Assembly (NCBI GenBank): GCA_036507075.1
Contig: DASXQR010000048.1
Span: 13,697-77,696, forward strand
From: Acidobacteriota bacterium
GTDB lineage: Bacteria; Acidobacteriota; UBA6911; JACQSX01
Direction of reading: 5' to 3'
Length of the DNA: 64,000 nucleotides
Position 1 is the first letter of the stretch. Each line of letters starts with the position of its first letter. A program made the position numbers and the translations under genes. The notes under the pieces are model-generated. The model was not told the DNA's origin and searched no databases. It saw only the letters and a list, made by a program, of their open reading frames with translations. This document shows positions 328-63,737 of this stretch, piece by piece.

Positions 328-449
328 GCCACGAAGCCACGAAGGCACGAAGGGGACCATGCGGCCCGCACTGACACTTCTTGTTAATGTTTGAAATGTT
401 GCCGTAATGCCGTTTCAAACAGACCGTCAAATCTTCGTGTCTTCGTGGC
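328..449. repeat. Inverted pair of 8-bp arrays (CACGAAGN)
   Basis: gccacgaagccacgaaggcacgaag at ~328-352 and its reverse complement tcttcgtgtcttcgtggc at ~432-449. Confidence 0.7.
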
Positions 450-471
450 AAGTACCGAGGAGCCGCACGGA

Positions 472-1863
472 TCACTTTAGTTCCAAGACGCTCACTTTTC
501 CCAGTTCCTCAAGCTGTTTCTGGACATCTGGCGGACCGACGGCCAAAATAATCAGCTTGTCTGGGTGCAGATATTTTTGCGCTACGCGCTCCACATCAGC
601 AATCGTAACGGCCGCTACGCGATCGCGATACTGGTACAGGAAGTCTTCAGGCAATCCGAAGTAGCGGTACTGCATCTGTCGAATTACGATCTGTCGCGGG
701 CTGTCGAATGAGAAAACGAATGAATTGATTTCTTCATCCTTGGCGCGCTGCAGTTCCGACGGATCAATCTTGCCGGTTTTGAGACGCTGCAGCTCCGAGA
801 TGATGGTTTTGACCGTCCTGGCTGTAGAAGGCGCGGCGGTTTCAGCCGAGACGGTGAACGCTCCCAAGTCACGCATCCCTCCCTGAAATGAACTTCCCAC
901 ATGGTAGGCCAGACCCATCTGTGTGCGCACCGTCTGCGTCAGCCTTGAGGAAAAACCGCTCCCCAGGATTGTATCCATCACGCTTAAAGCAAAGAAATCA
1001 GGGTTGCTGATCCTGGTTCCAAAGTGCCCGATGCGGATGTTGGTCTGGCTGACGTTCTTTGGAACGTAGAATATACCGGCCGTGTATTCGCCGCTTGCGG
1101 TCGCCACTTGTGGCAGCGCAGCCGGCCGGGCGACCCATTTTCCAAACAGGCTTTCCAGCCTCACGATCAATTGTTCTTTTTTGAAGTCTCCGGCAAATCC
1201 AACCAGGATGTTGGCGGGAGCGTAAAACTTCTCGTAAAATCCGCGCACGTCGGCAACAGTAATGGACGCTACCTGGCTCTCTTTGGGAAAACGGGCAAGC
1301 GGATGGTCTTTCCCATAAAGAGCAATTAAGTATTCCCGGGAGACTATCTCGCCCGGTTCATCGTTTCGGCGGATCAAAGCTTCGATGAATTGCTTTTTAA
1401 TCAGCTCCAGCTGTTTATCGTCAAAGCGGGGACGCTGTATCACGTCGGCCATCAACTGCAAACCGGTGTCGGCATCCTTGGAAAGAACCGACATTGATAC
1501 CCTTCCGCTCTCCTCGCTGATGTTCGACTCTACAGACGCGGCTATGAATTCCAGCGCTTCGTTGAGCTCTTCCGGAGTCTTGGAGATTGTGCCTCCTGTG
1601 CGAAGCAGTTCGCCGGTAACTTCCGCCAGTCCCAGTTTGTCGGACGGATCATAAATAGAACCAGTACGCACCAGCGCATAGCCGTCCACAATGGGAACCT
1701 CATGGTCTTCCAGCAGGAATACCTCAATTCCGTTGGAGAGCTTCACCTTGTCCGTTTTGGGAGGATTGAACTTCAGTTCAGGAAATTTTAATTGAGGCAG
1801 TTGGGCGCTTGCGTGGATTATGCAAAAAGCGCCGAGCAACAGGATTGGCAGTAGTCGTTTCAC
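472..1863 (-). CDS. M16 (pitrilysin/insulinase) family peptidase, non-catalytic subunit
   Basis: 463 aa; signal peptide; LSNGIEVFLLEDHEVP, GSIYDP..K.GLA and GFSSRL...VR...GLAY; no HXXEH. Confidence 0.9.
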   Translation of the reverse strand: MKRLLPILLLGAFCIIHASAQLPQLKFPELKFNPPKTDKVKLSNGIEVFLLEDHEVPIVDGYALVRTGSIYDPSDKLGLAEVTGELLRTGGTISKTPEELNEALEFIAASVESNISEESGRVSMSVLSKDADTGLQLMADVIQRPRFDDKQLELIKKQFIEALIRRNDEPGEIVSREYLIALYGKDHPLARFPKESQVASITVADVRGFYEKFYAPANILVGFAGDFKKEQLIVRLESLFGKWVARPAALPQVATASGEYTAGIFYVPKNVSQTNIRIGHFGTRISNPDFFALSVMDTILGSGFSSRLTQTVRTQMGLAYHVGSSFQGGMRDLGAFTVSAETAAPSTARTVKTIISELQRLKTGKIDPSELQRAKDEEINSFVFSFDSPRQIVIRQMQYRYFGLPEDFLYQYRDRVAAVTIADVERVAQKYLHPDKLIILAVGPPDVQKQLEELGKVSVLELK

Positions 1864-1883
1864 AAAGGAACTCCTTGAACATT

Positions 1884-1962
1884 TCGGGAGCGGAGAGACG
1901 GCCTGAGGGCCGTCTCAGCTTGGCGCACACCGCAAAGAGACGGCCCTCAGGCCGTCTCTCCG
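1884..1962. repeat. REP doublet (REPIN-like) of GAGACGGCC-TGAG-GGCCGTCTC
   Basis: Palindromic units at 1895-1916 and 1937-1958 in opposite orientation; same unit at 32611, 32654, 52299, 52343, 57592. Confidence 0.85.
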
Positions 1963-1998
1963 TCAGCGCGCCCCCTTCGGGGCGCCTACTTGAACGGC

Positions 1999-3534: not shown

Positions 3535-3632
3535 AAATTCCTCGGATTTGCGGGAAGAACGATAATATCAGAGACTTCGCGAGGGCTGTTAACCACAAAG
3601 ACACAGCGCGGCGGCAGGCCGCAGCCAAAAAA

Positions 3633-3968
3633 TCACAACTGCATTAAGATCCAGGCCGTAACGATTGTACCAGCCATCGCCGCACCATAGCACACCACGG
3701 CGAGAGGCTTTCTCAGCGTTGCTAACCCCATATCGGTCAGAGCAAAATAGAAGCGATGGGCCCAGTGGTACAGCGGCAGGGCGATGAGCACAAAAAGGTA
3801 GGCCTTGATCCACCAGTGCCGATAGAGCGACCCGCTGTCAGGGATCCAACCGAGAGGCACGGCGAAACCAAAAATGATCATGTGAATGGGCACCAGGAAG
3901 GCGGCTACCACGCCTCCGGCCGAAAAGAGCGTCCACCAAAGCGGTTCAGCGGTGTTTTTAGTAGCCAT
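3633..3968 (-). CDS. frdD: Fumarate reductase membrane anchor subunit D
   Basis: EPLWWTLFSAGG..AAFL.P motif; position after frdABC. Confidence 0.88.
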   Translation of the reverse strand: MATKNTAEPLWWTLFSAGGVVAAFLVPIHMIIFGFAVPLGWIPDSGSLYRHWWIKAYLFVLIALPLYHWAHRFYFALTDMGLATLRKPLAVVCYGAAMAGTIVTAWILMQL

Positions 3969-3971
3969 CTA

Positions 3972-4385
3972 TCAGCTCTGAAGCGCGCGGAAAAAAACGA
4001 AAATGATCAAGGATACCGCTATCCACGCGCCTATGTTCAGGGCGGTTACCAACCCCCGTGGAAGCTTACGTTCGCCTATCTGCAGTGGCAAGATGACCGC
4101 CGTGGAGTAAAACCAGGTCAAGCTGTGATACAGGGCAAACAAGAGGGCCACAAGGTGGAATGCGATCCACCCCGGCGAAGCAAGCTTCCGCGTAAAGGCA
4201 ACGTATGCCTCCAGGCCATGACTCAGTTGATAAATCTGGATCAGGAAGACGAGCAGGAAAACTGCGATGAACACGCTCGACAGCTCCCGCAGCATAAAGA
4301 AGAAATAACTGCGACGCCTCAACCACCAGGTTGCCGGCATCTTGGGATAATAGAGCTTGGACTTGTCGGGCCTTGTTCCGTTCAT
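3972..4385 (-). CDS. frdC: Fumarate reductase membrane anchor subunit C
   Basis: [10 protein letters not shown]....[12 protein letters not shown] and LYHSLTWF motifs. Confidence 0.88.
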
Positions 4386-7062: not shown

Positions 7063-7118
7063 TCACCACAGGGACACAGGGAACACAGGACCCGTGTCCC
7101 CTGTGTCTCTGTGGTGAA
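7063..7118. repeat. Inverted pair of 8/9-bp CACAGRGG arrays bounded by TTCACC...GGTGAA
   Basis: ttcaccacagggacacagggaacacagg ... ccgtgtcccctgtgtctctgtggtgaa. Confidence 0.75.
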
Positions 7119-8293: not shown

Positions 8294-8298
8294 GAGCC

Positions 8299-8510
8299 GG
8301 AAGCGGAAAGCGGAAGGCAGGAGGCAGGAAGCAGGAAGCAGGAAGCAGGAAGCAGGACGCAGGAAGCAGGACGCAGGAAGCAGGAGGCAGGAGGCGGAAG
8401 GCGGGAAGCGGAAAGCAGCAGGAGAAGTGGAATGAGGCAGTTTCGCGCCTTCGCGCCTTCGCGGTGCTAATCACCAACTCGTGACTCGTAACCCGGTAAC
8501 CCGTAACCCG
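8299..8510. repeat. Composite short tandem arrays: ~17 x GGAAGCA-type heptamer, then TTCGCGCC 8-mer, then ACCCGTA/ACTCGTA heptamer
   Basis: Direct reading of the sucC-sucD spacer. Confidence 0.85.
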
Positions 8511-8538: not shown

Positions 8539-9414
8539 ATGTCAATACTGGTAGATGAAAACACCCGATTGCTCGTCCAGGGAATTACCGGACGTGAGGG
8601 CGGCTTTCACGCGCGCCAGTGTGCCGCCTATGGCACAAAGGTGGTTGCCGGCGTGACCCCGGGAAAAGGGGGCCAGACGCACGAGAACATTCCCGTATTC
8701 AACACGGTTTCGGATGCAGCGCGCGAGACCGGCGCAGACGCCACCATGATTTTTGTGCCCCCGCCTTTCGCCGCCGATGCAATCATGGAAGCTGTCGATG
8801 CTGAAATTCCGCTGGTAGTGTGCATCACTGAAGGCATCCCGGTTTTCGACATGATTCGAGTACGCAAGTTCATGATCGGAAGAAAAAGCCGGCTTATCGG
8901 CCCCAATTGCCCCGGCGTAATCTCGCCGGGTAAATGCAAGATCGGCATCATGCCCGGCCACATTCACAAACCGGGGAATGTGGGCGTGATCAGCCGCAGC
9001 GGCACACTCACTTATGAGGCGGTCGATCAACTGACTCGCCTTGGAATCGGGCAGAGCACCTGCATTGGAATCGGCGGAGATCCGATCAATGGCACCAATT
9101 TCATCGATGCTCTGAGGCTCTTCCAGCAGGATCCGGACACTCGCGCGGTGGTGATAATCGGTGAAATCGGCGGATCTGCCGAAGAGGACGCCGCCGAGTT
9201 CATCCGCCGAGAGTTCAAAAAGCCGGTTGCAGGGTTCATCGCCGGACAAACTGCTCCTCCGGGAAGGCGCATGGGTCATGCCGGCGCCATCATCGCCGGC
9301 TCGCAGGGAACGGCAGAGGCAAAAATTGCTGCGCTGCGAAAGGCTGGAATTGAAGTTGTCGACAGTCCGGCCGAAATCGGCGCGGCCGTCCTTAAAATGA
9401 GTCGAAAGTCTTAA
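8539..9414 (+). CDS. sucD: Succinyl-CoA synthetase alpha subunit
   Basis: [36 protein letters not shown] (phospho-His). Confidence 0.97.
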
Positions 9415-9454
9415 AGTCTAAGGTCGAAGGTCTTAAAATCGAAATCCGGCTGCC

Positions 9455-9565
9455 ATCAGTACCGCGACCGTAAGAACGTGAGAAAAAATCAGTACCGCGA
9501 CCGTAAGGGAGCGGCGCAGCAGACTGGCACATATCGCCTCACGTTCTTGCGGTCGCGGTACTAAT
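9455..9565. repeat. REP-like inverted repeat, AGTACCGCGACCGTAAG(GGAGCGG) family
   Basis: 9455-9482 pairs with 9538-9565 (28 bp, 2 mismatches); extra direct copy at 9488-9517; relatives at 25351-25377 and 59025-59061. Confidence 0.75.
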
Positions 9566-10006: not shown

Positions 10007-10116
10007 CTTTGGCCGCGGTGTTGCGGTTGACGAATTCTAAATCTTCAATTTGCCAATTGATGACTTGTCATAACTCGTAACGCGTTAACTCGTAACCCGC
10101 AAACTCGCAATTGCGT

Positions 10117-10332: not shown

Positions 10333-10335
10333 TCC

Positions 10336-11484
10336 TTGGCCTCCGCACTAGAGCTGTTTCCAGAATGCCGCCGGGAGCCGGTGAGCTTTCGCTTTGACTT
10401 CTTCCTGGAGAGAATCCTTTACCATCCGGAACACGGTTACTATTCACAGTGCCCAAGCTTCGGAAAGGAGGGAGACTTTTATACTTCACCCGGTGTTCAT
10501 TCCTTTTTCGCCGAAATCCTGGCCGAGCAATTCCTGCAGGGCTGGGAGGAGGAAAGCAAACCCGAATTTTTCACGCTGCTGGAGCTCGGGCCCGGAGATG
10601 CCACGCTCGCCTCTCAATTGCTGACCACCATCCGAGACCGCTTTCCTGATTTCTGCCGATCAATCCGGTATCTTGGGCTGGAAGTAAGCAGCCGGCTGGC
10701 TGCCCAGCAGCGCCAACGGCTATCTCAGTTTGAGAACGCCCGAATTTTCTGCCGTCATTTTTCGGAAATAGAGCTGGAGCCGTTTTCCGGATGTATTTTC
10801 TCCAATGAATTTTTTGACGCCCTGCCTTTTCGCAGATTCCAGCGCGGGTCTTCCGGATGGCTCGAATGCTTTGTCGAGATCAGCCCCAACGGCATTCAGG
10901 AGCAGTGGCACGGCGCGGATGTCAAGCCGGCACGGTTCACCTCCGGGAAGCGGCAACCGCCTGTTGAAACCTCGTCCGCGGCACTGCTTTTCCACAAACA
11001 CCCGATGCCCGCCGGCGGGATCGTTGAGTGGCGGGACCAGTTCCAAGCCTTTTATCAGTTTGCCTCGCGGGTTTTGCGCCGGGGCTCCATGTTTCACTTC
11101 GATTACGGAGACCTTGAAGAAAACCTCGATCCCATGGGGACAATGCGGACATTCCGCCGGCATCATCTCGGCGCCGATCCTTACGTCCATCTGGGAGAAC
11201 AGGACGTAACGGCCAGTGTGAATTTTTCGCAGTTACTGGCCCTCGGGGACAGCTACGGATTTGAGAGCCGGCTGCAGGGCCAGCGCGAATATTTGATCGA
11301 CCGCGGAATTCTGCAGAAGATCGCCGTGCGCTTTGAAGGAAAGACGCCGGAGAAACATCTCCGCGAAAAATTAGCCATCAAGAACCTGATCGTTCCCGGC
11401 GGAATCAGCGATCATTTCAAGGTGCTGATACAGAGGAGAATCCAAAACGGAACCGCAAAGGACGCCAAGAGCGCCAAGCTTTGA
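10336..11484 (+). CDS. SAM-dependent methyltransferase, MidA/NDUFAF7 family
   Basis: LYHPEHGYY, GDFYTSP, LELGPG, SNEFFDALP, DYG, GEQDVTASVNF; TTG start uncertain. Confidence 0.87.
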   Translation: MASALELFPECRREPVSFRFDFFLERILYHPEHGYYSQCPSFGKEGDFYTSPGVHSFFAEILAEQFLQGWEEESKPEFFTLLELGPGDATLASQLLTTIRDRFPDFCRSIRYLGLEVSSRLAAQQRQRLSQFENARIFCRHFSEIELEPFSGCIFSNEFFDALPFRRFQRGSSGWLECFVEISPNGIQEQWHGADVKPARFTSGKRQPPVETSSAALLFHKHPMPAGGIVEWRDQFQAFYQFASRVLRRGSMFHFDYGDLEENLDPMGTMRTFRRHHLGADPYVHLGEQDVTASVNFSQLLALGDSYGFESRLQGQREYLIDRGILQKIAVRFEGKTPEKHLREKLAIKNLIVPGGISDHFKVLIQRRIQNGTAKDAKSAKL

Positions 11485-11691
11485 ACTCAACGGCGACAAG
11501 GGGCATTCCTCCAGATCAACGATTCGACTGGGACGCCAAAGTAAAGAGTTTTGGCTTGGTGGTTCAATTTTTTTGACCACCAAGACACCAAGCTTCAAAA
11601 CTGTCATTTGGCGAGGTTGTTAGTCAGGCCATCCTGTGCTTCTACTGCTTTGCGGTCTTCGCGTTCTTGGCGGTTCCGTCTTCCGCGCAGC

Positions 11692-12216
11692 CTACGCGGC
11701 GTTTTTGCTGCTTCAGCCGCCGGCCCAGCGGGGCGCATCGGATGGAATGATGGGCCCAATGGTCCGTCCAAACTCAGCGGCTGTTCTCTGAGCGAGCCTT
11801 TCCCAAAAGTCTGCCGAGTATCCAAAGTCGCTCTCCAGAATCTTTCCGCTTCGAGCGACGAGGAACAGAGCAGGAACGTTGCTGATTCCCAACGAATCGC
11901 TCAATTCATAAGGGTCCTGGTCGAACAAAACCAGGCTGAAACGGATTCCCCAGTTCTCCAGAAATTCCGCGGTCTCGGCCGGCTCATCCTGAGAAATTCC
12001 CACAAAGGGAAGCTCCGGAATTGCTTTGACCAGATTGTTCATGTAAGGCAGAGAAAACTGCGACGTGGGACAATCCGTTTTAAACAGAGCAAAGAGCACG
12101 AGCGGCGCGTCTCCGACAACAGAGGAAAGGCTGTGAGTCATCCCCACGGCGTCTTTCAGAGCAAACTCCGGGAATAACTGCCCGGACTCCAGGAACGATT
12201 CAGATCCCTGTTTCAA
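11692..12216 (-). CDS. TlpA/AhpC-TSA (peroxiredoxin-like) thioredoxin-fold protein; probable UGA-selenocysteine at 11713-11715
   Basis: FPEFALKD..G, FKTDCPTSQ, VGISQD, GISNVPALFLV. After TGA the frame continues SSKNAA-TAG with a hairpin. TTG start at 12216 is inferred, because the longer ORF start lies in repeats. Confidence 0.75.
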
Positions 12217-12252: not shown

Positions 12253-12315
12253 TTTTGTGTCCTTTGTGCCTTTGTGGTGAATAATCGGACCACAAAGGCA
12301 CAAAGAGCACAAAGA
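12253..12315. repeat. Outward-facing inverted pair of CACAAAG 8/9-bp arrays
   Basis: tttgtgtcctttgtgcctttgtggtgaa ... accacaaaggcacaaagagcacaaag; near-identical structure at 18977-19040. Confidence 0.8.
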
Positions 12316-13826: not shown

Positions 13827-13830
13827 GCTT

Positions 13831-14134
13831 CGGGTTTTCGAGTGGGCGGGTTGGCGGGTTACGAGCTGGCGGATTACGGGTTGGCGGGTTACGGGTTGGC
13901 GGGTTACGGGTTTTTGGGTTACGGGTTGCGAGTTGGCGGATTGCAAAATTGGAAAATTGAAAATTACCGTATCAGGATGAGGGACATCCAGTTTTCCATT
14001 TCCTACTTCGTGACCTATTGCACTAACTCGAAATCCTAACCAACTCGGAACCCGATAACCCGGAAACTGAGAACCCGGAACCCGGAACCCGACAACTCGG
14101 AACCCGATAACCCGGAACCCGAAAACCCGGAACC
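13831..14134. repeat. Inverted pair of alternating 7/8-bp arrays (CGGGTTA/CGGGTTGG vs AACCCGG/AACCCGAT)
   Basis: Left arm ~13831-13941 and right arm ~14025-14134, enclosing a smaller AAAATTG/CAGTTTT inverted pair. Confidence 0.8.
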
Positions 14135-14147
14135 ATGGGGTTAAGCG

Positions 14148-17420: not shown

Positions 17421-17672
17421 TTCACCACAGAGCTCAAGCGTAGCCGTAAGCCTCAACCACTCAAAAAGCCGAGGACGGCCCCGTGCACGTCAACGATAGA
17501 CGTCAACGACCACGTCAACGCTCACGAAAAAAAAGTCGCAAGTCTGCCTTCTGTTGACCAAGTCTTCAAGCTCTGAATCCTTCGAGCATTTGGACGTACC
17601 TGGTAGACGTGCACGTGGACGTAGACCTTAGACGTAGACGTTGACGTGATCGGTTTTTGTCTTTTCTGAAAT
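17421..17672. repeat. Hexamer (CACGTC/GACGTG) inverted-array cassette
   Basis: Aligns along its length with the reverse complement of 39612-39839. Confidence 0.8.
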
Positions 17673-21760: not shown

Positions 21761-21818
21761 TGTTCAAGACCCTCGATTTTCACTGCGTGACGGTGCACTT
21801 TCACAGTATAAGAGGGAA

Positions 21819-23198: not shown

Positions 23199-23266
23199 GA
23201 ACATGAGAAAAAATTAACCGCGAAGGCGCGAAAGCGCGAAAGCAAAAATTGCTCTAGTCCTTCTGA

Positions 23267-24355
23267 ATGGCCAGAACCACAGAAATTTCATTACTTAGTC
23301 ATAGTTCGGCAACCGGTGATCTATTTATTTCGCGCCTTCGCGCCTTCGCGGTTCCGGCTTTTTTTTTGCTGTCAACTGCCTGTTTCTTGAGGGCTGCAGA
23401 ATCGGGAGCTTTCAGTACTCCTGCCGCTGTTTCTTCGGAGAATCCTACCAGCGCTCAATTCGAGTTTAGAGGAACCGTCGTGCAGCCGAATCAGAAGCCT
23501 TTCGGGAATGTTCTGCCGGTGGTGTTTCTACGCGGCGCAATCACTCCCTTTACTTCCCAAACGCTGGCGGACGGCGCTGGAAAATTCAAGTTCAAGAATC
23601 TCCAGCAGGGTATGTACACGCTGACCGTCGCCATTCCCAATGCCGGCCAGACGCAACAGACCATTGAAGTCGGCCCCAGTGTGGCTGATGCAAAGCGGAT
23701 AGTCCGGAAGACCATCGTCTTTGATTCCAGTTCCGATCGTGAGTCGCATGTGGTGTCGGCGCGCCAATTGTCCGTCCCCGATAACGCGCGCATGCTTTAC
23801 CAGAAAGCGGAGGAGAGGTTAGGAAAACGGGATACACCCGGCGCCATAAAGCTTCTGGAAAGAGCGGTCGAACTCGCGCCTCAGTTTTCTACAGCCTGGA
23901 ATCATCTTGGAACGATTGCTTACCAGACTCAGCGGTATGATCAGGCCGAACAGTATTTCCGTGAGGCCCTCAAGCAGGATCCCGATTCCTATGCTCCTTT
24001 AGTCAACCTGGGAGGTACTTTGCTGGCGAAAGGAAAAGTGGAAGAATCGCTTCAGGTGAATCTCCGGGCGGTCAAGGCCCGGCCCGACGATGCGCTGGGC
24101 CACTCGCAGCTTGGGCAGAGTTATTTTCTGCTGGGACAACTCGACGATGCCGAGACGCAGTTAAAACAGGCCAAGGCGCTCGACCCGATGCATTTTTCGC
24201 TCCCACAACTGCTCCTGACCAAAATCCATCAGGCCAGGGCGGACTACCCTGCAATGATTCGCGAGTTGGAAGAGTTCCTGCGCCTTCATCCCGATTCCGA
24301 CCTGGCGCCACGCATGCGCGAACTGCTGGAGAAGGTCCGACCCTGGGGCCGATGA
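23267..24355 (+). CDS. Carboxypeptidase-regulatory-like domain plus TPR repeat protein
   Basis: GKFKFKNL..G.YTL.V; VS.RQL.VP..A; several TPRs; start uncertain. Confidence 0.8.
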   Translation: MARTTEISLLSHSSATGDLFISRLRAFAVPAFFLLSTACFLRAAESGAFSTPAAVSSENPTSAQFEFRGTVVQPNQKPFGNVLPVVFLRGAITPFTSQTLADGAGKFKFKNLQQGMYTLTVAIPNAGQTQQTIEVGPSVADAKRIVRKTIVFDSSSDRESHVVSARQLSVPDNARMLYQKAEERLGKRDTPGAIKLLERAVELAPQFSTAWNHLGTIAYQTQRYDQAEQYFREALKQDPDSYAPLVNLGGTLLAKGKVEESLQVNLRAVKARPDDALGHSQLGQSYFLLGQLDDAETQLKQAKALDPMHFSLPQLLLTKIHQARADYPAMIRELEEFLRLHPDSDLAPRMRELLEKVRPWGR

Positions 24356-24550
24356 GTCCGTTGTCAGTGGTCCGTTGTCAGTTGTCCGTTGTCCACTGTC
24401 AGTTGTCGAAGGGTAGTAATGAAGCGGGAGCACTGGGGATTACTCGACTACGCGGTAACAACCTGCCACGGACAACGGACCACTGACAACGGACCACGGA
24501 CAAGATTAGAGCAATTTCGCTTTCGCGCCTTCGCGGTGAATTTCTTCTCA
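24356..24550. repeat. Inverted pair of TCCGTTG/TCAGTTG heptamer arrays, followed by a TTCGCGCC 8-mer end
   Basis: Left ~24356-24407, right ~24468-24503; same family at 63576-63737. Confidence 0.85.
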
Positions 24551-27133: not shown

Positions 27134-27370
27134 TTGCCCTTTTCCTTAAGTCTACAGGCTGTGGATTCGCAACACTGCTTTCACCGCAGAGACGCCAAGA
27201 TCGCCGAGTCTCGCAGAGTCCATAAATCAGGCTCTGCGACATTTCAGCGTGCTCTGCGAAGGCGGCGAATGCCACGATGCCGTCTTCACAAACCTGTATT
27301 CAAGGCAACACGCTTACTTCTAAAGCTTATGAATAATCCCGGGCCTGCTGTGCCGCGGGTGCAGCCCGCG

Positions 27371-29034: not shown

Positions 29035-29111
29035 TGGTGGGCGCTCGCGGGCTCGAACCGCGGACCTCCGCCGTGTGAGGACGGCGCTCTAACCAACTGA
29101 GCTAAGCGCCC
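29035..29111 (-). tRNA. tRNA-Val(CAC)
   Basis: GGGCGCTTAGCTCAGTTGGTTAGAGCGCCGTCCT-CAC-ACGGCGGAGGTCCGCGGTTCGAGCCCGCGAGCGCCCACCA; full cloverleaf with encoded CCA. Confidence 0.96.
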
Positions 29112-29166: not shown

Positions 29167-29375
29167 AAAGTCGAAGGTCGAATCGTCGAAAGTCAAAGGT
29201 CCAAAGTCGAAGGTCGAAGGTCAGCGCAATCATCGGTATGGCGACTGTAGGCAACGGAATGACGGGCCCTGCAGATCTTCTTGGCGATCACGATACAGAT
29301 GGTAATCCCAGGACTTTCGACCTTCGACTTTATGACTTTCGACTTTTTGGATTCGACTTTCAAACTTTCGATTTT
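29167..29375. repeat. Inverted pair of AAGGTCG/AAAGTCG heptamer arrays
   Basis: Left ~29167-29222, right ~29313-29375; single-arm copy at ~9405-9445. Confidence 0.85.
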
Positions 29376-29401
29376 AAAGGTAGTTGTGTTTTGATAATGC
29401 G

Positions 29402-30439: not shown

Positions 30440-30635
30440 CACCACAAAGACACGGCGCAGCAGACCGCAACCGAGTAAAAGCCGTCGACGTCTAAGTGCA
30501 GGTGACACGTCAACGTCTACGTCTACGCTTACGTCACGCTTACGTCGGCGCTAAATAGTATGATTTTGATTGGCCGTCCTCGTGAACGTCGGCCGCGGAC
30601 GTTGACGTGTCACCTGCACGTAGACGTCGACGGCT
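30440..30635. repeat. Hexamer cassette with 38-bp inverted arms, preceded by the CACAAAGA...CCGCAACC motif
   Basis: 30480-30517 vs 30598-30635, one mismatch. Confidence 0.85.
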
Positions 30636-37237: not shown

Positions 37238-37317
37238 TCACCGCAGAGCCGCAAAGGCCGCCAAGGCACGCAGAGCAACTCTGCGAACCTTTGCGATCTC
37301 TGTGCCTCTTCGGTGAA
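37238..37317. repeat. Inverted pair of 9-bp CGCAGAG/CGCAAAG arrays bounded by TTCACCGC...GGTGAA
   Basis: Same family at ~27180-27269, 39499-39578 and 43268-43362. Confidence 0.75.
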
Positions 37318-39386: not shown

Positions 39387-39578
39387 AGGTCTCCTCTTTT
39401 GATCTGGTAAGTTTACCGGCTAGCTGCCCCGGTGTTCCCAAAAATCGTTTTCAGGCGTCGGGCCCAAATCTAAGGGCGCCTTGACTCGGTAGGCTGCCTT
39501 CACCGCCGAGCCGCCGAGACCGCCGAGGCCGCGCAGAGTTTGCAGCCCAACCTCTGCGAAATCTCAGCGTGCTCTGCG

Positions 39579-39865
39579 TGGCACGGTGGCAACTTCTTGT
39601 TTTTAGACGAGATTTCAGAAGACAAGACCGATCACGTCGACGTTTATCGTCTACGGCCACGTGCACGTCAATGTCCACGACGCACGTCCAAATGCAAGGT
39701 GACAGATTTAGAGCCTAATCATTTTGGTCAACATTGACACGATGCGTTCCAAACTGCGATTTTTTCCTTCGTGAGCGTTGACGTGATCGTTGACGTCTAT
39801 CGTTGACGTGCACGTGCTCGTGGCCGTCCTTGGCTTTTTCTTTGGTTGCGGCTCTTCCGGACTGT
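39579..39865. mobile_element. Hexamer-array cassette with a possible four-helix-bundle gene remnant, inserted into the right arm of a 9-bp array
   Basis: Homologous to 17463-17672; minus strand 39708-39752 reads LERIVSMLTKMIRL-stop; separates ctctgcg (39578) from the array terminus gcggcggtga (~39866). Confidence 0.55.
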
Positions 39866-43245: not shown

Positions 43246-43525
43246 ATTGAGATGTCGACAAATCGCCTTCACCGCAGAGGCGCCGAGGACGCCAAAGTCA
43301 GCGCAGAGTTCTGACGGATTTCTCTGCGGACACTCGGCGATCTTTGCGTCTTTGCGGTGAAAAACGTCGCCGCCTCCGTCCTTTACCGGCATTTTTGCCT
43401 GGCTCCATAAAATTTTTTTCGCAGATTTCCCCACACCCCGGTTATGTCCTTTTGAACCATGGCTTGATTTCAGCGGCAACGTTCCGTGCCCCTGTAAAAT
43501 GCCATGAAACCATCGGAGCCAGGTT

Positions 43526-44410
43526 ATGAATAAACAGGAATTGCTGAAATTGGCCGACAATCCCGCCCTTATCGAAGGCATTTACAACTATTGCGACCGC
43601 TGGTGCGAGCGTTGCCCGCTGACGCCGCGGTGTCTGGTTTTTGCCATGGAATCCGCGGACAAAGAGCGTGCCGCCGCTGCAGGGGAAGAAGAGCAACTCG
43701 TTCATCAGCTTGAGGAATCTTTACGCCTGACAACAGAATTGCTCGCTGACTTTCAGAAGGAACAGGAAATGCAATTCAATTCAGAAGATAGCGCCGCAGA
43801 AACCGACGCAGAGGCGCACGTATTCTCCAAGCTTGAGGCAGAGGAACTGTCCGAGGCCCGAAAAATCGCACCCATAGCCGTGCGCGCGGCGAGGCATTAC
43901 ATCGACCTGGTCAATGACTGGTTTGATTCCCACGGTTCGCTATTTGAGGAAAAAGAGCGATCGTTGAATGCCGGAGTTCCTGTCGTCTCTGACGCGACAA
44001 ATCTTCAACATGAGGTCGACCAGATCACGGATGCTGTGGAAGTAATCCGCTGGTACCAGCATCAGATCTTCGTGAAATTAATGCGGGCGTCCAGAAACCT
44101 GGATGAGCTCGCAGAAGAATGTAAACAGACAAGGCCCGACAGCATTCTCCTGGATGCCGTAAAGCGGGACGTAAACGGCTCAGCCAAGGTTGCGTTAATC
44201 GGGGTGCAACGCTCCACTTCCGCATGGCTGTCTCTGCGCGGGCATTTGACCGATCAGGCTGACAGCATTCTTCACGTATTGATTCATCTGGAAAAACTGC
44301 GACGCAACTTGCTTTTGGCGTTTCCCGACGCGGAGACGTTCCTCAGGCCCGGATTTGATGAAATTGAAAAGGTTGAACCGACAGGGCCCGAAGAGCGCAA
44401 AAGGGCCTAA
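43526..44410 (+). CDS. Hypothetical acidic helical protein with an N-terminal Cys cluster
   Basis: GIYNYCDRWCERCPLTPRC; D.NGSAKVALI...RS; FP.A..F.RPGFDE. Confidence 0.75.
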   Translation: MNKQELLKLADNPALIEGIYNYCDRWCERCPLTPRCLVFAMESADKERAAAAGEEEQLVHQLEESLRLTTELLADFQKEQEMQFNSEDSAAETDAEAHVFSKLEAEELSEARKIAPIAVRAARHYIDLVNDWFDSHGSLFEEKERSLNAGVPVVSDATNLQHEVDQITDAVEVIRWYQHQIFVKLMRASRNLDELAEECKQTRPDSILLDAVKRDVNGSAKVALIGVQRSTSAWLSLRGHLTDQADSILHVLIHLEKLRRNLLLAFPDAETFLRPGFDEIEKVEPTGPEERKRA

Positions 44411-44492
44411 GTCCTGCTTGGCGCCTTGGGGGCTTAATTTTTTTAACCGCCAAGGCACCAAGACTCGTAAACTCTCGTGGTATCGGTCCTCC

Positions 44493-48107: not shown

Positions 48108-50651
48108 ATGAGAAAAAATTCACCGCGAAGGCGGGAACGCGCGAAGGCAACTCTTTGTGTCTTCGTGTCTTTGTGGTTTATATCCCTGGCCGCGGCCGCA
48201 CAAACTCCAAAGACTATTCCCACCCTGAAAGAGATCTTCTTCGAACCTAAATCTGTCTTCCTTTCCGGCGCCGGCGAGTCCCAGACATTGATCGTCACGG
48301 GCCGTTACTCGGACGGTTCAACGCGCGACCTGACGCGCGAGGTGAACTTCTCCTCAAACGACACATCAATTGCCGAAGTCAACTCGGCGGGGGTCGTGAC
48401 GTCCAAGGCTCCAGGCATGACTCGCGTTGTGGCGTGTCTGGATTCGACCGCTCAGGGATCACAGGCGGGCAATTCAAGTCCACTTCGCACTGCCGCCAAG
48501 GTTGGTAACGGGGCAAACCTTTCCGCTCTCGCGCTGGTGGTCATTCGAGAATTGGGAGGGCCCCGGAAACTCAGTTTCGCGAATGATATTGCGCCGATCT
48601 TCTCGCGCGCCGGCTGCAACGCCAGCGGCTGCCATGGAGCGCTCAATGGCCAGGGCGGATTCAAGCTTTCGCTTTTCGGTTATGATCCCGACGCCGATTA
48701 CCAGGCCATTGTTAAGGACAACAGCGGGCGGCGTGTAGATCTCAAATACCCCGAAGAGAGTCTGATCCTGTTGAAACCGACATTCACAATGCGCCATGGC
48801 GGGGGGCAGGTCATTACGGAGAATTCCCTGGAATACCGCGCGCTGCACGATTGGGTTGCTGCCGGAGCCCCGCAGGGCAGGACCGGAGGCCCGCGGCTGG
48901 AAAAACTGTTTGTTTATCCGAATGACCAGCGTTTCCTGACCGGACCGGACCAGAAACAGCAGTTGGTGGTAGTCGGCAAGTACAACGACGGCCGCGAAGT
49001 GGATATGACGCGCCTGGTGCGTTACAGCTCCAGCGACGAAACGGTGGCGATGGTAAGCCAGGGCGGACTGGTTCAGCCCCGGCGCAGCGGCGAAACGAAT
49101 ATCATGGTGCGCTCACTGGGGGCCGTCGGCGCGGCGCGTGTTGCCGTGGTGCTTCGTCCTCCGCTTGCAGCCCATCAAAAGATGGCGCGGAATAATTTCA
49201 TCGATGATCTGGTGCTGGAAAAGCTCGAGAAGATGCGCATCATCCCATCCGAGATTTGCACCGACAACGAGTATGTGCGCCGCGTGTACCTGGATCTGAT
49301 AGGGACGCTTCCCGCTCCGGAAGAAGTAAGGGCGTTTTTGCGTGACCGCTCCAGGGACAAAAGAACGCGTCTCATTGACGCGCTCTTCAAACGTCCCGAA
49401 TACGCCGATTTCTGGTCTCTGAAATGGGGAGATCTGCTGACCAACAGCCCGCAATTCCTTTATAACGGCACGGCCTATTTCCAATCATGGCTGAGAGACG
49501 CATTCGCACACAACATGCCTTACGACCGCTTTGTGCGTGAACTCCTGACCTCCAGCGGCGGGACCTACCAGGCGCTTCCCACAAATTTTTACGCCGCAGG
49601 CAAGAAGCCCGAAGACATGGCTACATTTACCAGCCAGGCATTTCTGGGCCTCAGTCTGGAATGTGCGCGCTGCCATGACCATCCGAGCGAAAAATGGAAG
49701 CGCGACGACTTCCTGGGTCTGGCCGCCTTCTTTTCACAGGTGAAGTTCAAGAACGGCGCGCGCAACAACGAGCGCTTTCTGTACGTCGACCCTGAAAAAG
49801 AGTTCCAGCATCCTCAGACCAAGCGGGTAATTCCGGCAAGGTTTCTCGGCGCCGGCAACGCGGATTTCCGGCCGCAAGAGGACCGCCGGGCGCGCCTGGC
49901 TGCCTGGCTCACCTCACCCTCGAACCCCTACTTTGCCCGCGCCATCACCAACAGAATCTGGCGCGAGTTGATGGGTCGGGGCATCGTCGAACCTGCGGAC
50001 GATTTCAGGATCACCAATCCTCCCACTCATGAAGTCCTGCTGGACCGGCTGGCCGCGGATTTTGTGAAAGACGGCTTCGACCTGCAGCATTTGATGAAGC
50101 GGATCCTGATGTCGAGAACTTATCAGCTCTCTTCCCGCACCAATGAAACTAATCACGATGACAAGACTGCTTACTCTCACTACCACCTGCGCCGGCTTAC
50201 AGCCGAGCAGCTTGCCGATGCCATCTCACAGGTGAGCGGAGTTCCGGAAAAGTATCCCTTTTTCTATCCCGGAAAACGCGCCATCCAGTTGCCCGATCCG
50301 ATAGTGGATTCTTACTTCCTTACGATTTTCGATCGGTCCACTCGCGAAAATGCAACCTGCACGCGCAAGCAATCGGCCAGCATGGCTCAGTCGCTCAATC
50401 TGGTCAGCGGCGAGACGATCAACGCCAAGCTGCGTCATGACAAGGGAATACTGGCGCGTTTGATTCGGGAAGGAAAGACTGACAAAGAAATCGCGGAACA
50501 CTTCTGGATTTCCACGCTGTCGCGCGCTCCAAGCAAGTCGGAGCTGAAGGCCGCACAAGAAGGGATTAGCAGGGGCCAGTCGCGGCGCGAAGGGTTGGAG
50601 GATTTTGTCTGGGCGCTACTGAACTCGAAAGAGTTCCTGTACAATCACTAG
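48108..50651 (+). CDS. Ig-like (Big_2) plus DUF1549/DUF1553 (PSD1/PSCyt-type) protein
   Basis: SF.NDI.P.F...GCNASGCHG; NNFID..V..KL; RRVYLDLIGTLP; CARCHDHP; NPPTH; WALLNSKEFLYNH. Confidence 0.88.
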   Translation: MRKNSPRRRERAKATLCVFVSLWFISLAAAAQTPKTIPTLKEIFFEPKSVFLSGAGESQTLIVTGRYSDGSTRDLTREVNFSSNDTSIAEVNSAGVVTSKAPGMTRVVACLDSTAQGSQAGNSSPLRTAAKVGNGANLSALALVVIRELGGPRKLSFANDIAPIFSRAGCNASGCHGALNGQGGFKLSLFGYDPDADYQAIVKDNSGRRVDLKYPEESLILLKPTFTMRHGGGQVITENSLEYRALHDWVAAGAPQGRTGGPRLEKLFVYPNDQRFLTGPDQKQQLVVVGKYNDGREVDMTRLVRYSSSDETVAMVSQGGLVQPRRSGETNIMVRSLGAVGAARVAVVLRPPLAAHQKMARNNFIDDLVLEKLEKMRIIPSEICTDNEYVRRVYLDLIGTLPAPEEVRAFLRDRSRDKRTRLIDALFKRPEYADFWSLKWGDLLTNSPQFLYNGTAYFQSWLRDAFAHNMPYDRFVRELLTSSGGTYQALPTNFYAAGKKPEDMATFTSQAFLGLSLECARCHDHPSEKWKRDDFLGLAAFFSQVKFKNGARNNERFLYVDPEKEFQHPQTKRVIPARFLGAGNADFRPQEDRRARLAAWLTSPSNPYFARAITNRIWRELMGRGIVEPADDFRITNPPTHEVLLDRLAADFVKDGFDLQHLMKRILMSRTYQLSSRTNETNHDDKTAYSHYHLRRLTAEQLADAISQVSGVPEKYPFFYPGKRAIQLPDPIVDSYFLTIFDRSTRENATCTRKQSASMAQSLNLVSGETINAKLRHDKGILARLIREGKTDKEIAEHFWISTLSRAPSKSELKAAQEGISRGQSRREGLEDFVWALLNSKEFLYNH

Positions 50652-52262: not shown

Positions 52263-52298
52263 CTCGGCGACGCTTCCAGCGGGATGATCGGCAGCGGA

Positions 52299-52364
52299 GA
52301 GACGGCCTGAGGGCCGTCTCAGCCCGGCAGTACATCGCGCCAGAGACGGCCCTCAGGCCGTCTC
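52299..52364. repeat. REP doublet (GAGACGGCC family) between convergent genes
   Basis: Units at 52299-52320 and 52343-52364. Confidence 0.85.
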
Positions 52365-52444
52365 TCCTAGTGCAGCTACGCTGCGCCAGGCCCACCCGCT
52401 TTCTGGGCGACAGCGAAAAGTTTTTTCGGCCCGTGGCTTCATTT

Positions 52445-57516: not shown

Positions 57517-57540
57517 TCAAAAAACAATTCACCACAGAGG

Positions 57541-57664
57541 CTTAGCGCGGCGAAGCCGCAACCAAAAGTCAAGGAGGTGTCCTGCCAAGCTGAGACGGCC
57601 CTCAGGCCGTCTCTCCGCTCCCGAATAATTTGCGCAGGCCGCGAAAATTCTCATGGTTAGTAGT
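57541..57664. mobile_element. Second copy of the MITE-like element (one REP unit)
   Basis: Flanked by ACAGAGG direct repeats (57534-57540, 57665-57671); ends match 32576-32725. Confidence 0.7.
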
Positions 57665-57724
57665 ACAGAGGACACAGAGGGGCCCTGTGTTCTCTGTGTC
57701 TCTGTGTTTAACAGGATGTTTCCG

Positions 57725-59002: not shown

Positions 59003-59024
59003 CGCATCCCCCTTTGTACACCAG

Positions 59025-59061
59025 CCGCAGTACCGCGATCCGTCAGGTCGCGGTACTGCGG
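59025..59061. terminator. 16-bp hairpin between convergent genes (REP-derived; possible bidirectional terminator)
   Basis: CCGCAGTACCGCGATC / GGTCGCGGTACTGCGG; no strong U-tract. Confidence 0.45.
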
Positions 59062-59099
59062 ACGTGTGAATCCGGGCCTGCGCGCGGCTTGGTTTGTGG

Positions 59100-59930: not shown

Positions 59931-59956
59931 GTCGAAAAATCAGAGTTCGCGCTCAA

Positions 59957-60056
59957 AATGCGGATTTCGGAATGCGGAATGCGGAATAGGGACTGGTCTT
60001 GGACTCGGCCTCGCAGAATTAAGCTTGGCATATTCCGCATTCCGCATTCCGCATTC
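59957..60056. repeat. Inverted pair of AATGCGG heptamer arrays
   Basis: 59957-59987 and 60032-60056. Confidence 0.85.
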
Positions 60057-60080
60057 GGAAGTGTGTGCTCAAAACAGCTA

Positions 60081-61541: not shown

Positions 61542-61545
61542 GGGC

Positions 61546-61842
61546 TTATCGGATCACCTTTGGCACGCGAAATTGTCCCTGGTCCTCATCGGGTGCGTTT
61601 GAAACAGCGCGGTTCCGGTCCAGAGAAGCCTGCTCCTCATCCGGGCGCGCCCTCTGACGGTCAATCTTGAAAGGAACCGCATGGTAAGTAGGTTCGATCC
61701 CTTCGGTATCAACTTGGCGTAGTTGTTCTATGTAATCCAGGATTTTCGAAAACTGAAGGATGAAGCCTTCGAGTTCCTGCTGCGAAAATTCCAGATTAGA
61801 AAGATCGGCGATGTGCTTGACTTCTTCGATTGTGATGGCCAT
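61546..61842 (-). CDS. gatC: Asp/Glu-tRNA amidotransferase subunit C
   Basis: IT.EEVKHIA.LSNL, VDTEGIEPT.H, NAP....GQF.VPKVI. Confidence 0.93.
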   Translation of the reverse strand: MAITIEEVKHIADLSNLEFSQQELEGFILQFSKILDYIEQLRQVDTEGIEPTYHAVPFKIDRQRARPDEEQASLDRNRAVSNAPDEDQGQFRVPKVIR

Positions 61843-61857
61843 AGATTCGATTCTTCC

Positions 61858-62796
61858 TCAGTTGACCCTGGCAAAATACCGCCGCCCGAGTTTGATGTCT
61901 TTGCGAATACGCTGGACCAGTTCCTCGGGAGATGCAAACTTTTTTTCCGCCCGGATTCGAAAATGAAAGAACAGCTCCATCTCGCTGCCGTACAGGTCCT
62001 CGTTCAAATCAAACAGGTGTGTTTCCACGATGGGATGTTCAGACGTTCTCTGCGTAATCGTGGGCCGAAAACCCACGTTGGTCACTCCCTGAACTGTTCT
62101 TCCCGACAGTCTGGCCGCAGTCACATAAACCCCGGTCTGGGGTATCAGCTCATTCTGCACGCTCAGGTTCGCCGTCGGAATGCCGATGCGCGCGCCCAGC
62201 CCGTCCCCGTGAATCACGGTACCGACCAGGGAAAACGGGCGGCCCAGCATCCGCTTTGCAATTTCCACATGACCATGGGAAAGAAAACGGCGAATTCGCG
62301 TGCTGCTCACCTTTATGTTGCGAAAATAATATTCGGGAATTTCCCTGATCTCTATCCCAAACCGAAGGCCCAAATCCTTCAGCAATGTGACGTCTCCTTC
62401 GCGGTTATGACCGAAGCGAAAATTCGCGCCCACATGAAGCTCTCGTATTCCCAGCCTCTGGTGAATGATTTGACTGACAAAATCATGCGCAGAAAGCTGG
62501 GCCAGGTCCCAGGTAAACGGGATCAGAGCCAGCAGGTCCAGCCCCAGTTTTTCCAGCAGCGCCGCTTTCTGTTCGAACGTCTGCAACAATCGTGGGGCGT
62601 CTCCGGAAGAGATGATTTTCTGCGGGTGAGGATGGAACGTAAGCAGGGCCGCAGTGCCTCCGTTTTGCCGCGCCCGCGTTACGATTCCCTTGAGTATGGC
62701 CTGGTGGCCGCAATGAATCCCGTCGAAACTTCCGATGCTAAGAATGGGATAGGGATAGTTTTCGGTAATTTCATGAAGACTGCGGACGATCCTCAT
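61858..62796 (-). CDS. ribF: Bifunctional riboflavin kinase/FAD synthetase
   Basis: IGSFDGIH.GHQ, TF.PHP, VSSTRIR, G.PTANL, GVY, NVG.RPT, ETHLFD. Confidence 0.96.
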   Translation of the reverse strand: MRIVRSLHEITENYPYPILSIGSFDGIHCGHQAILKGIVTRARQNGGTAALLTFHPHPQKIISSGDAPRLLQTFEQKAALLEKLGLDLLALIPFTWDLAQLSAHDFVSQIIHQRLGIRELHVGANFRFGHNREGDVTLLKDLGLRFGIEIREIPEYYFRNIKVSSTRIRRFLSHGHVEIAKRMLGRPFSLVGTVIHGDGLGARIGIPTANLSVQNELIPQTGVYVTAARLSGRTVQGVTNVGFRPTITQRTSEHPIVETHLFDLNEDLYGSEMELFFHFRIRAEKKFASPEELVQRIRKDIKLGRRYFARVN

Positions 62797-63545
62797 AGCT
62801 CCAGGGTCAACCCGTCATACGCCAGTCGAACTTGGGGGGGTAACGAACGCTCCACTTCCTCATGATCCAGTTGGTGTGAAATATGAGTCAAAAAAGCCTG
62901 CCGGGGCTGGATCTTTCCGATCTGTTCTACGGCCTGGTTCACTGAAAAATGCGCAAAATGAGGCGTGTGGCGCAACGCGTTCAGCACCACACAGTCGACA
63001 TTTCTGATCCGCCGGATCGTTTCCTCCGGAATGAAGCTGGCATCGGTAATATAGGCAAAATTGGAGATTCTGAATCCGAGGATTGCGAGTCTTCCGTGAA
63101 TGATCTCGAGCGGTTCGATTCGCATACCGTTGATATCCAGAGGGCCGTCGATCGCCCGGGCCTCCACTTTGGGCGCGCCTTCGTGAGACGTTCCATCAAA
63201 GATATAAGAGAAAGTTTCCCTGATCCGCTGCAGCGTGCGCGCATTCCCGTAGATCGGAATGGCGCCTTTTTGCCAGTAATTGAAGGGACGGATGTCATCC
63301 AGGCCCAGAATATGATCGGCGTGCCAGTGCGTAAACAGCACCGCATCCAGGCGCGAGATGGGGTGGCGCATGATCTGACTCCGAAAATCAGTCCCAGAAT
63401 CGATCACAATCTGGGCGGAGCCCTGGATCAGCACCGACGGCCTCGTCCTTCGGTTCCGGCTGTCGCTGGACTTGCACACGCGGCAATCGCAGCCAAGCAT
63501 CGGAACTCCATGTGAAGTTCCGGTTCCGAGAAATGTAACTTTCAT
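62793..63545 (-). CDS. Metallo-beta-lactamase-fold phosphodiesterase (PhnP-like)
   Basis: FLGTGTS.GVP..GC.C.VC, THWHADHILGLDD.R, AYITD, THISH. Confidence 0.9.
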   Translation of the reverse strand: MKVTFLGTGTSHGVPMLGCDCRVCKSSDSRNRRTRPSVLIQGSAQIVIDSGTDFRSQIMRHPISRLDAVLFTHWHADHILGLDDIRPFNYWQKGAIPIYGNARTLQRIRETFSYIFDGTSHEGAPKVEARAIDGPLDINGMRIEPLEIIHGRLAILGFRISNFAYITDASFIPEETIRRIRNVDCVVLNALRHTPHFAHFSVNQAVEQIGKIQPRQAFLTHISHQLDHEEVERSLPPQVRLAYDGLTLEL

Positions 63546-63575
63546 TTTCGGTAATTGTGGGGAATGCGCGATTGC

Positions 63576-63737
63576 CAGTTGTCCGTTGTCCGTTGTCAGT
63601 GGTCCGTTGTCAGTGGTCCGTGGTCAGTGGTTCGTTGAGAGCGGTAAGACTACGCATAACTAACCGTAAAACCGACGAGAAACCTGACAAGTCGACCACT
63701 GACAACGGACAACTGACCACTGACAACGGACAACTGA
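63576..63737. repeat. Inverted pair of TCCGTTG/TCAGTGG heptamer arrays
   Basis: Left ~63576-63636, right ~63695-63737. Confidence 0.85.

Follow-up and report, generated by a model that had tools for sequence, protein, structure and literature searches.

What are the inverted pairs of short tandem arrays that fill gap after gap in an acidobacterial genome, and where did they come from? The question is raised by a 64,000-nucleotide stretch of an Acidobacteriota bacterium (GenBank assembly GCA_036507075.1, contig DASXQR010000048.1, positions 13,697 to 77,696; G000:C48:13697-77696 in our numbering), referred to below as the window. An earlier note on this DNA had proposed that its 6-9-bp arrays bound the empty shells of a transposase-free cassette family. 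We analysed the host genome (G000; 6.1 Mb, 233 contigs, 96% complete) together with five relatives, G001-G005, of which four share its family and one its order, but none its genus. Among named records, the closest relatives of its DprA are those of Bryobacteraceae, Acidobacteriaceae, Pyrinomonadaceae and Terriglobia, in line with an acidobacterial host. Elements were called filled when a four-helix-bundle (4HB; PF05635/TIGR02436) or GxxExxY (PF13366/TIGR04256) gene lay between mirrored arms, and empty when they were gene-less. The answer that we favour, with a confidence somewhat above even, is that the window elements are gene-less copies of such one-gene cassettes, likely copied in trans by the cassette proteins during natural competence.

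Tandem Repeats Finder (score of at least 40) returned 1022, 568 and 370 rows of periods 7, 8 and 9 over the whole genome, compared with 0, 0 and 4 in a block-shuffled genome, and 90-95% of these rows were intergenic, though strong open reading frames (ORFs) span 80% of the DNA. A genome-wide periodicity scan detected 2,467 intergenic 6-9-bp arrays, and 1,321 of the 3,919 gene gaps (about a third) contain one. Inward-facing inverted pairs with cores of up to 250 bp numbered 572. Clustering of 571 close inverted pairs yielded 15 clusters of at least four members, which represent only about a dozen families because some clusters are the reverse arrangement of others. Polarity was nearly absolute, with 554 inward versus 2 outward close pairs in 12 families (three two-way clusters excluded). 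Cores ranged genome-wide from less than 10 to about 250 bp, a wider span than the 10-100 bp first reported. Arms almost always consisted of three units in GxxExxY-type families and of some 4-15 units in heptamer families. Elements lay at a median distance of 19 bp from stop codons and occupied 46% of convergent and 30% of co-directional gaps, and in 16 gaps a complete pair was found inside another pair. The arms are not self-complementary (cosine between a family and its own reverse complement of at most 0.01, and 0.28 for the hexamer family), so they are not the ends of repetitive extragenic palindromes (REPs). Arm likeness, examined in seven families, was higher for the element's own partner in five and about even in two; it was not used as support.

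The host genome contains eight TIGR02436 matches at seven loci and six PF13366 matches, 13 loci altogether, with four intact genes of each type. Inspection by eye showed these loci to be flanked by the same array families as the empty elements, two fragments having a partial layout, and the order of a full cassette is left arm, promoter-like motif, gene and right arm. In 44 4HB loci (40 from the relatives and four from the host), the 88 flanks carried 7-mers in 72 cases, 6-mers in 5, an 8-mer in 1 and no array in 10. A cross-phylum scan was made for GxxExxY only, the four-sequence 4HB alignment being too diverse. Among the best 80 of its 596 confirmed stretches, from Bacteroidota, Verrucomicrobiota, Planctomycetota, Chloroflexota, Desulfobacterota, Alphaproteobacteria and others, the 160 flanks held 8-mers in 39 cases, 9-mers in 28, 6- or 7-mers in 5 and no array in 88, compared with arrays in 8 of 147 distal controls. 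The statement in the earlier note that both gene types are often flanked by such arrays was thus borne out, with clear enrichment, and its proposal that the period marks the cognate protein stands as a strong rule (7-mers with 4HB, 8- or 9-mers with GxxExxY) that is not strict, as 4HB genes also have 6-mers and 8-mers.

The word repeated in the arms also follows the protein. Matching inverted arms were available for 28 of the 44 4HB loci, the other 16 being excluded for an array missing on one side or a neighbouring element picked up instead. Among protein pairs from different genomes, an arm profile was common to 10 of 14 pairs above 60% identity versus 4 of 324 below it, and arm words correlated with the 4HB phylogeny (Mantel rho 0.31; reached in 0 of 2000 permutations). 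Arm and protein, as judged by these comparisons, travel together, which by itself does not prove binding.

Empty pairs outnumber intact genes by about 70 to 1 (572 to 8). Their descent could be read directly in the hexamer family. A DNA profile of three hexamer-armed 4HB genes, run with nhmmer against intergenic DNA, matched at 15 places, each time over the gene's final 40-65 nt (E 1e-8 to 7e-3). Eleven of these shells consist of left arm, promoter, ribosome-binding site and then, immediately, the last codons, stop codon and right arm, one of them without the left arm; four more, including window 39612-39810, lack an additional 42 bp and form a nested second lineage. Each deletion in this family occurred once and was copied afterwards, so that it is gene-less units that multiplied. 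A shell on C192, like window 17463-17647, is a more decayed member, and a shell of an 8-mer element on C82 keeps an arm, the promoter and about 20 codons of the cassette on C231. Multiplication was evident beyond this family: 184 of the 432 cores of at least 40 bp had sister copies, in clusters of as many as 30; copies in a cluster keep one length, end sharply and are about 80% identical. Direct repeats of at least 5 bp, as expected of a target-site duplication, did not exceed their frequency in shuffled pairings for most of the 10 families examined; the value in one was 0.22 against 0.08 when shuffled (n = 23).

Several results weigh against extending this descent to every empty element. Gene relics were found by nhmmer in the hexamer group, one of 15 profile groups, and in none of the other 14; tblastn of 493 cores gave no protein-level relic; cores in general were not enriched for the promoter motif; 248 of the 432 cores were singletons; and the assembly, which is 96% complete, contains no cognate gene for four of the families, among them the commonest (389 arrays). 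On balance we regard it as very probable that the empties originate from cassettes. Shell status is directly visible in the hexamer family and the one 8-mer element and likely for the rest. The earlier description of gene-less derivatives is supported, directly in the case of those two, most empties keeping no recognisable gene or promoter relic, and the picture of empty shells needs amending, since most were amplified as units and did not each decay in place.

It is decidedly unlikely, in our judgement, that such copies spread with no transposition at all, through natural transformation and recombination by the host (illegitimate events primed by the arms, homology-facilitated events or gene conversion), with slippage growing the arms and the cassette protein only biasing the outcome. 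This would suit the co-regulation with DprA, RecA, ComM and RadC described below, the variable length of heptamer arms, the nesting and adjoining of elements and the mere 80% or so of likeness between copies. It fits poorly with sharp common ends and constant core lengths at unrelated sites, with the nearly invariant three-unit arms of the GxxExxY type, and with the finding that one and the same gap holds different families in relatives, its flanks giving no common arm homology.

Such variation among relatives was seen at several orthologous gaps, as the earlier note had suggested checking; the gaps were not invariant and could be filled, empty or bare. Between sucC and sucD, the array families differ among G000, G001, G003 and G004; G002 has a degenerate pair there, and in G005 the gap is 27 bp long. 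G001 has only 8 bp at the counterpart of the 13827-14147 gap. At 11485-11712 the gene-less 9-mers of the host are replaced in G002 by a complete 4HB cassette with heptamer arms (L086), and the ribF-gatC gap, 15 bp in the host, is filled in three relatives. The periodicity test found no array at the ortholog of the 63572-63737 gap in four relatives, the gap being shorter in G002 and G004. These differences are separate insertions in different genera, not one element caught moving. At the gap orthologous to 21761-21866, G001 and G003 (L006, L007) carry a two-gene insert resembling, by eye, a PIN-type toxin-antitoxin pair, plus hexamer arrays.

These comparisons also bear on whether the elements are RNA hairpins that the host maintains for RNase III cleavage, termination or mRNA stabilisation, comparable to the stem of the 23S rRNA intervening sequence (IVS), with mobility past or minor. 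The stems are long and stable, lie near stop codons and are commoner in convergent gaps, and RNase III cuts the heptamer-repeat stem of the Coxiella IVS, according to the available passages of PMC4990558. Selection for an RNA stem should nevertheless leave an excess of G-U over A-C mismatches on the transcribed strand, and none was present (318 G-U, 312 A-C). As relatives have the gap bare or occupied by another family, lone arms are many and multi-copy families show amplification, we hold a host-kept hairpin to be very improbable as the main explanation, though the elements may have a secondary RNA role.

A clue to when cassettes are expressed came from a motif search upstream of 13 cassette genes, which recovered two boxes with 12-nt spacing in 11; the other two genes were 5'-truncated. 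The refined consensus, AAATTTTTTCGCAGATTT-N9-CCAGTTATGT, has 60 sites in the genome versus 0-1 in shuffled sequence, 59 of them outside strong coding sequence, and only five more sites scored between 15 and 18. The motif is non-palindromic and lies shortly before the start, the distance between its boxes being fixed. We scanned 58 downstream ORFs with Pfam and NCBIfam, two others being too short. Among them were those for ComEA, a GspH-type pilin, ComEC, ComF, DprA, ComM (YifB), RadC, SSB and RecA, those for RecG, RecQ, UvrD and an ERCC4 nuclease, and 10 Y1 transposases, five 4HB and five GxxExxY genes; over a third of all motif sites belong to Y1, 4HB and GxxExxY cassettes and their relics. 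The genes comEA, comEC, comF, dprA, comM and radC and the pilin gene form the classic late-competence set. Two non-palindromic boxes, a fixed spacer, the position and the gene set together point to an alternative-sigma competence promoter. A late-competence list for Legionella, in the accessible passages of PMC12378983, likewise names comEA, comEC, comM and radC, together with comF.

Held-out tests matter here because the cassette sites had trained the motif model. In G001-G005, 21 of 38 cassette genes passed versus 2 of 716 control windows (six second pieces or contig-edge fragments excluded), all 21 in G001 and G003; weaker variants were visible at cassettes of G002, G004 and G005. The second box ends 5 nt before the ATG of dprA in G001-G003, and the motif is present at dprA in four of the four family genomes that have this gene. 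About 8 of 24 more distant dprA genes showed a variant with a different second box. A model built from seven dprA sites of other orders passed 11 of 48 cassette genes in G005-G030, each in the variant of its own host, versus 5 of 1,165 controls (four truncated 4HB matches excluded). With the strict pattern, G002 had 13 sites versus 3 in the control; they precede radA, uvrD, a pilin gene, two integron integrases (L337, L338) and others. Directly downstream of dprA lie two broken GxxExxY genes without the motif, one on G001:C383 and one on G003:C73 (L118, L119, L142, L144).

Against a competence promoter stand the 25 of 58 ORFs behind the motif that are unrelated (6) or without a family (19), several of which looked like broken cassettes on inspection, and the cassette genes of relatives without a passing motif (17 of 38 and 37 of 48 in the two tests). 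The seven dprA training sites were chosen with a softened host-genome model, so that the second test is not fully independent. Upstream of 57 dprA matches in 60 genomes of other groups no common motif was apparent by eye, no per-phylum motif search having been made, and in other phyla many cassettes, again by eye, start immediately after a stop codon, which leaves no space for a promoter. Such cassettes would ride on the host operon, and the promoter link was seen only within the host's class. With these points taken in, we still consider the motif quite probably a competence promoter.

The repair genes in the set (recA, recG, recQ, uvrD, the ERCC4 nuclease gene and, in G002, radA) might instead suggest that the elements had the history described above under a LexA-independent DNA-damage or general stress regulon, especially as mobile elements are often stress-induced. 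We consider this quite unlikely, as the uptake-specific comEA, comEC, comF, pilin, dprA, comM and radC genes belong to the same set and the motif was not found in the 400 bp upstream of lexA (best score -3.8). This last result also led us to reject identity with the LexA (SOS) box. A pair of genes for an extracytoplasmic-function sigma factor and a zinc-finger anti-sigma factor about 5 kb from recG (G000:C17:70859-72081) was considered as a possible regulator and not adopted; the motif match at its junction falls within coding sequence, has a score of only 25 and may be due to chance.

One of the strongest motif sites stands in the window, before a 294-aa ORF (43526-44410, + strand) without a Pfam or NCBIfam family. 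It has look-alikes in unnamed clusters of Acidobacteriota and Bacteroidota and is a candidate new competence gene. Further familyless ORFs behind the motif are L026, L033 (C28), L031 (C97), L045 (C87), L049 (C192), L053 and L066 (C83); on C28, two paralogues flank an ERCC4 nuclease gene that also bears the motif.

Which enzyme moves the elements? GxxExxY has a confidently predicted fold (pLDDT 93) with invariant or near-invariant residues E41, D81, E91 and K93. Its fold matches are weak (E 0.04 or worse) and are all PD-(D/E)XK nucleases (Cas4, alkaline exonuclease, Hjc), no sequence match being found in the PDB; the model is compatible with a protein that could supply a cut. In Pfam and NCBIfam scans 4HB is related to Avd. 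The pentameric ring of the Xanthomonas S23p protein suits a binding role, and 4HB elements would accordingly need a catalytic partner. The arms themselves fold well as single-stranded DNA (ssDNA): in eight window elements z ranged from -3.9 to -7.0, and 0 or 1 of 200 shuffles folded equally well.

Mobilisation could instead be the work of the Y1 (IS200/RAYT-type) transposases, or of another co-regulated enzyme, acting in trans on cassette-derived empties, with 4HB and GxxExxY as passengers or helpers. The motif lies ahead of 10 of the 12 PF01797 matches in the genome, in the same layout of repeats, promoter, gene and repeats, and true REP-Y1 cassettes thus coexist with the arrays under one promoter motif; moreover, HUH transposition produces no target duplication, and the array arms form single-strand hairpins. 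The term transposase-free is on this account unproven, because the Y1 enzymes share the promoter and could act in trans. Yet the Y1 genes are flanked by palindromic REP-like repeats of their own and not by these arrays, the array arms are not self-complementary, and arm word and period track 4HB and GxxExxY across phyla, which would be needless for a mere passenger. We therefore rate the Y1 route as rather unlikely.

That 4HB (Avd/S23p-like) and GxxExxY proteins are the mobilisers of undescribed transposase-free elements, recognising their own arms as ssDNA under competence sigma control and giving rise to hundreds of gene-less hairpins in each genome, we put forward tentatively, at somewhat less than an even chance. 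It has to contend with the lack, to our knowledge, of any catalytic site in 4HB, and with the fact that the arm-protein agreement may merely reflect inheritance of a block, related genomes not being independent.

The sequence of events that we propose starts from full cassettes, in which the arm word matches the protein clade. Internal deletion would then remove the gene, as it evidently did in the hexamer family and the one 8-mer element and presumably in the rest. The sequences show that shortened units then multiplied at fixed length, with sharp ends and no target duplication, into sites that are mostly close behind stop codons and also in the middle of other elements. The shared motif, as the alternative-sigma promoter of a competence regulon, would switch the cassette genes on. 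The arms would form hairpins on the ssDNA supplied by competence and be bound by the cognate protein; GxxExxY would cut through its PD-(D/E)XK fold, and 4HB would hold the arms, needing a co-expressed nuclease or the host's RecA, DprA or ComM for strand transfer. We infer an ssDNA substrate from the hairpin folding and from the company of Y1 transposases and integron integrases, both of which act on single-strand hairpins.

Table 1. Array elements and associated features of the window (z, single-strand folding score against shuffles).
Positions	Strand	Feature	Remark
327..449	.	Inward pair with GxxExxY-type arms of three 8-mer units each	z -4.3
7063..7118	.	Short inward pair, 8/9-mer arms, directly upstream of sucC	z -6.1
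8295..8510	.	sucC-sucD gap, three unpaired arms of three families	left arm 8295-8418; right arms 8442-8470, 8476-8510
9400..9433	.	Lone heptamer left arm; the REP-like palindromes behind it are unrelated	sequence reading
10071..10107	.	Lone heptamer right arm	score not above all shuffles
11451..11675	.	Nested element: outer 9-mer inward pair, inner back-to-back 8-mer pair	
12254..12315	.	Back-to-back 8/9-mer pair, divergent genes either side	
13831..14134	.	Long 7/8-mer inward pair; family also flanks a broken 4HB gene on C73	
15715..16007	.	Inward pair, compound arms of 37-bp period; resembles GxxExxY cassette arms on C145 (by eye)	new relative to the earlier note
17463..17647	+	Hexamer pair; core with decayed promoter box and decayed 4HB last codons	
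18978..19036	.	Back-to-back 8/9-mer pair occupying the sucA-sucB gap	z -5.6
23216..23353	.	Member of a 10-copy gene-less family; arms and 82-88-bp core copied together	z -7.0
24356..24503	.	Inward heptamer pair beginning at the upstream stop codon; family flanks an intact 4HB gene on C88	z -6.2
27180..27260	.	Degenerate 9-mer pair, marginal	
29035-29111	-	tRNA-Val(CAC), adjoins the heptamer pair 29167..29376	
29167..29376	.	Heptamer inward pair adjoining tRNA-Val; family gene-less in this assembly, flanks 4HB in G001-G003	
30480..30635	.	Hexamer inward pair, convergent genes either side	
37238..37315	.	9-mer inward pair	
39499..39590	.	Degenerate 9-mer pair that did not beat the shuffles	
39612..39810	-	Shell of the hexamer family with left arm, upstream promoter box, 4HB last codons and right arm	1 of 4 secondary-deletion copies
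39708..39749	-	4HB 3'-end relic, 13 codons and stop; matches the end of the intact 4HB gene on C37	E 4e-4
43268..43361	.	9-mer inward pair	z -3.9
43411..43447	+	Copy of the two-box promoter-like motif, precedes the unannotated 294-aa ORF	
44418..44460	.	Short back-to-back 8-mer pair	
59957..60060	.	Inward heptamer pair between gatA and rsmI; commonest family, no cognate gene in the assembly	z -6.0
63572..63737	.	Heptamer inward pair	z -6.8

The features of the window are collected in Table 1. All arrays listed in the earlier note are present at their positions, and its view that about two dozen spacers share an inverted grammar is largely upheld, 20 of 23 coordinates exceeding all 40 shuffles in inverted-alignment score (8477, 10073 and 39499 did not). 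The grammar of array, core and reverse array is less uniform than it had assumed: 8299, 8477, 9405 and 10073 are lone arms, the inverted score at 9405 being due to a separate REP-like palindrome; the pairs at 12253, 18977 and 44418 and the inner pair of 11451-11675 face outward; and 27180, listed as a pair, is marginal on inspection. The arrays within the sucC-sucD, sucA-sucB and gatA-rsmI operons are real, the gene pairs having been confirmed with NCBIfam. The supposed PhnP gene (ORF 62793-63545) encodes a metallo-beta-lactamase-fold hydrolase, its PhnP match being weak and below the cut-off.

Further mixed arms, absent from the earlier note, occur at 48108-48175 and 57527-57707, where they overlap or abut the start codon of the next gene. 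In a 27-copy 9-mer family many copies are centred in another short palindrome, half of which is found in the window at about 27326-27345; this suggests a preferred target of the family. Classical REP-like palindromes, some of them doublets, were located at 1893-1962, 9454-9564, 52296-52368 and 57592-57617, and palindromes of the 1893-1962 type border, in addition, broken Y1-like genes that follow motif sites (L038, L056).

Among known systems, REPIN/RAYT (PMC3116915, as far as its accessible passages go) comes close, with extragenic inverted doublets at preferred spacings that form hairpins, the doublet as the multiplied unit, many non-autonomous copies beside few repeat-flanked genes, and lone-arm remnants; no target duplication was seen in our elements either. 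These differ in that their arms are 6-9-bp tandem arrays and not palindromic REPs, and in that the flanked gene encodes a 4HB or PD-(D/E)XK-fold protein and not an HUH Y1 transposase. Our elements also share terminal inverted repeats, an internal-deletion origin (in the hexamer family and one 8-mer shell) and fixed-length amplification with miniature inverted-repeat transposable elements, which are internal-deletion derivatives of insertion sequences; they differ from them by having no target-site duplication above shuffles and a parent gene that is not a known transposase, and no DDE transposase with these ends was found.

The ORF-bearing 23S IVSs of Coxiella and Leptospira have an ORF of the same S23p/PF05635/TIGR02436 family between inverted ends with heptamer repeats, whose number varies, and it is the Xanthomonas S23p protein that forms a pentameric toroid (PMC4990558, in part). 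The cassettes described here differ by lying between protein-coding genes, as the window elements also do, by their own promoter-like motif and by the dominance of gene-less copies. Intergenic, strain-variable heptamer arrays are on record in Xanthomonas, Nostoc and Beggiatoaceae, with 70-75 convergent inverted heptamer pairs in xanthomonads; the passages of PMC4692102 and PMC4679880 at hand propose G-quadruplex or translational roles and make no general link to mobile elements, and PMC4692102 does not contain the words "four helix". We infer that these heptamers may have a common origin with the elements described here. The cyanobacterial short tandemly repeated repetitive (STRR) sequences are also intergenic heptamer repeats.

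As in late-competence regulons such as those of streptococcal ComX/sigma-X, Haemophilus CRP-S and the Legionella RocR targets, a single motif precedes comEA, comEC, comF, dprA, comM, radC, ssb, recA and a pilin gene; here the motif is another one, the host belongs to the Acidobacteriota and over a third of the sites sit on selfish cassettes. Neither "IS200" nor "competence promoter" occurs in the available passages of a 2025 review of competence and mobile elements (PMC12378983), and those of PMC3479197 contain nothing on RAYT regulation. Open-licence PMC and bioRxiv texts, to the extent accessible, gave no link of 4HB or GxxExxY to repeat arms outside the 23S IVS, or to competence, and no description of a competence regulon in this acidobacterial lineage. 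What appears to be new is the tie of the cassette family to a predicted competence promoter.

The elements constitute a real and large family of non-autonomous units derived from 4HB and GxxExxY cassettes, and a new class if mobilisation by these proteins holds. The finding joins two very common protein families of unknown function, the intergenic excess of heptamers and the timing of small selfish-element movement. The deletion relics mean that at least one repeat family descends from a 4HB cassette, and the shared motif names competence as the likely condition and outlines a predicted competence regulon. Selfish genes on a competence promoter (Y1 transposases, integron integrases and these cassettes) would be the reverse of the better-known mobile elements that block competence. 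As each protein clade has its own short target word, binding and cutting are directly assayable. If the proposal is true, the unexplained 7-bp intergenic repeats of many bacteria would have a source, and two large families of unknown function would gain a programmable, repeat-specific DNA activity.

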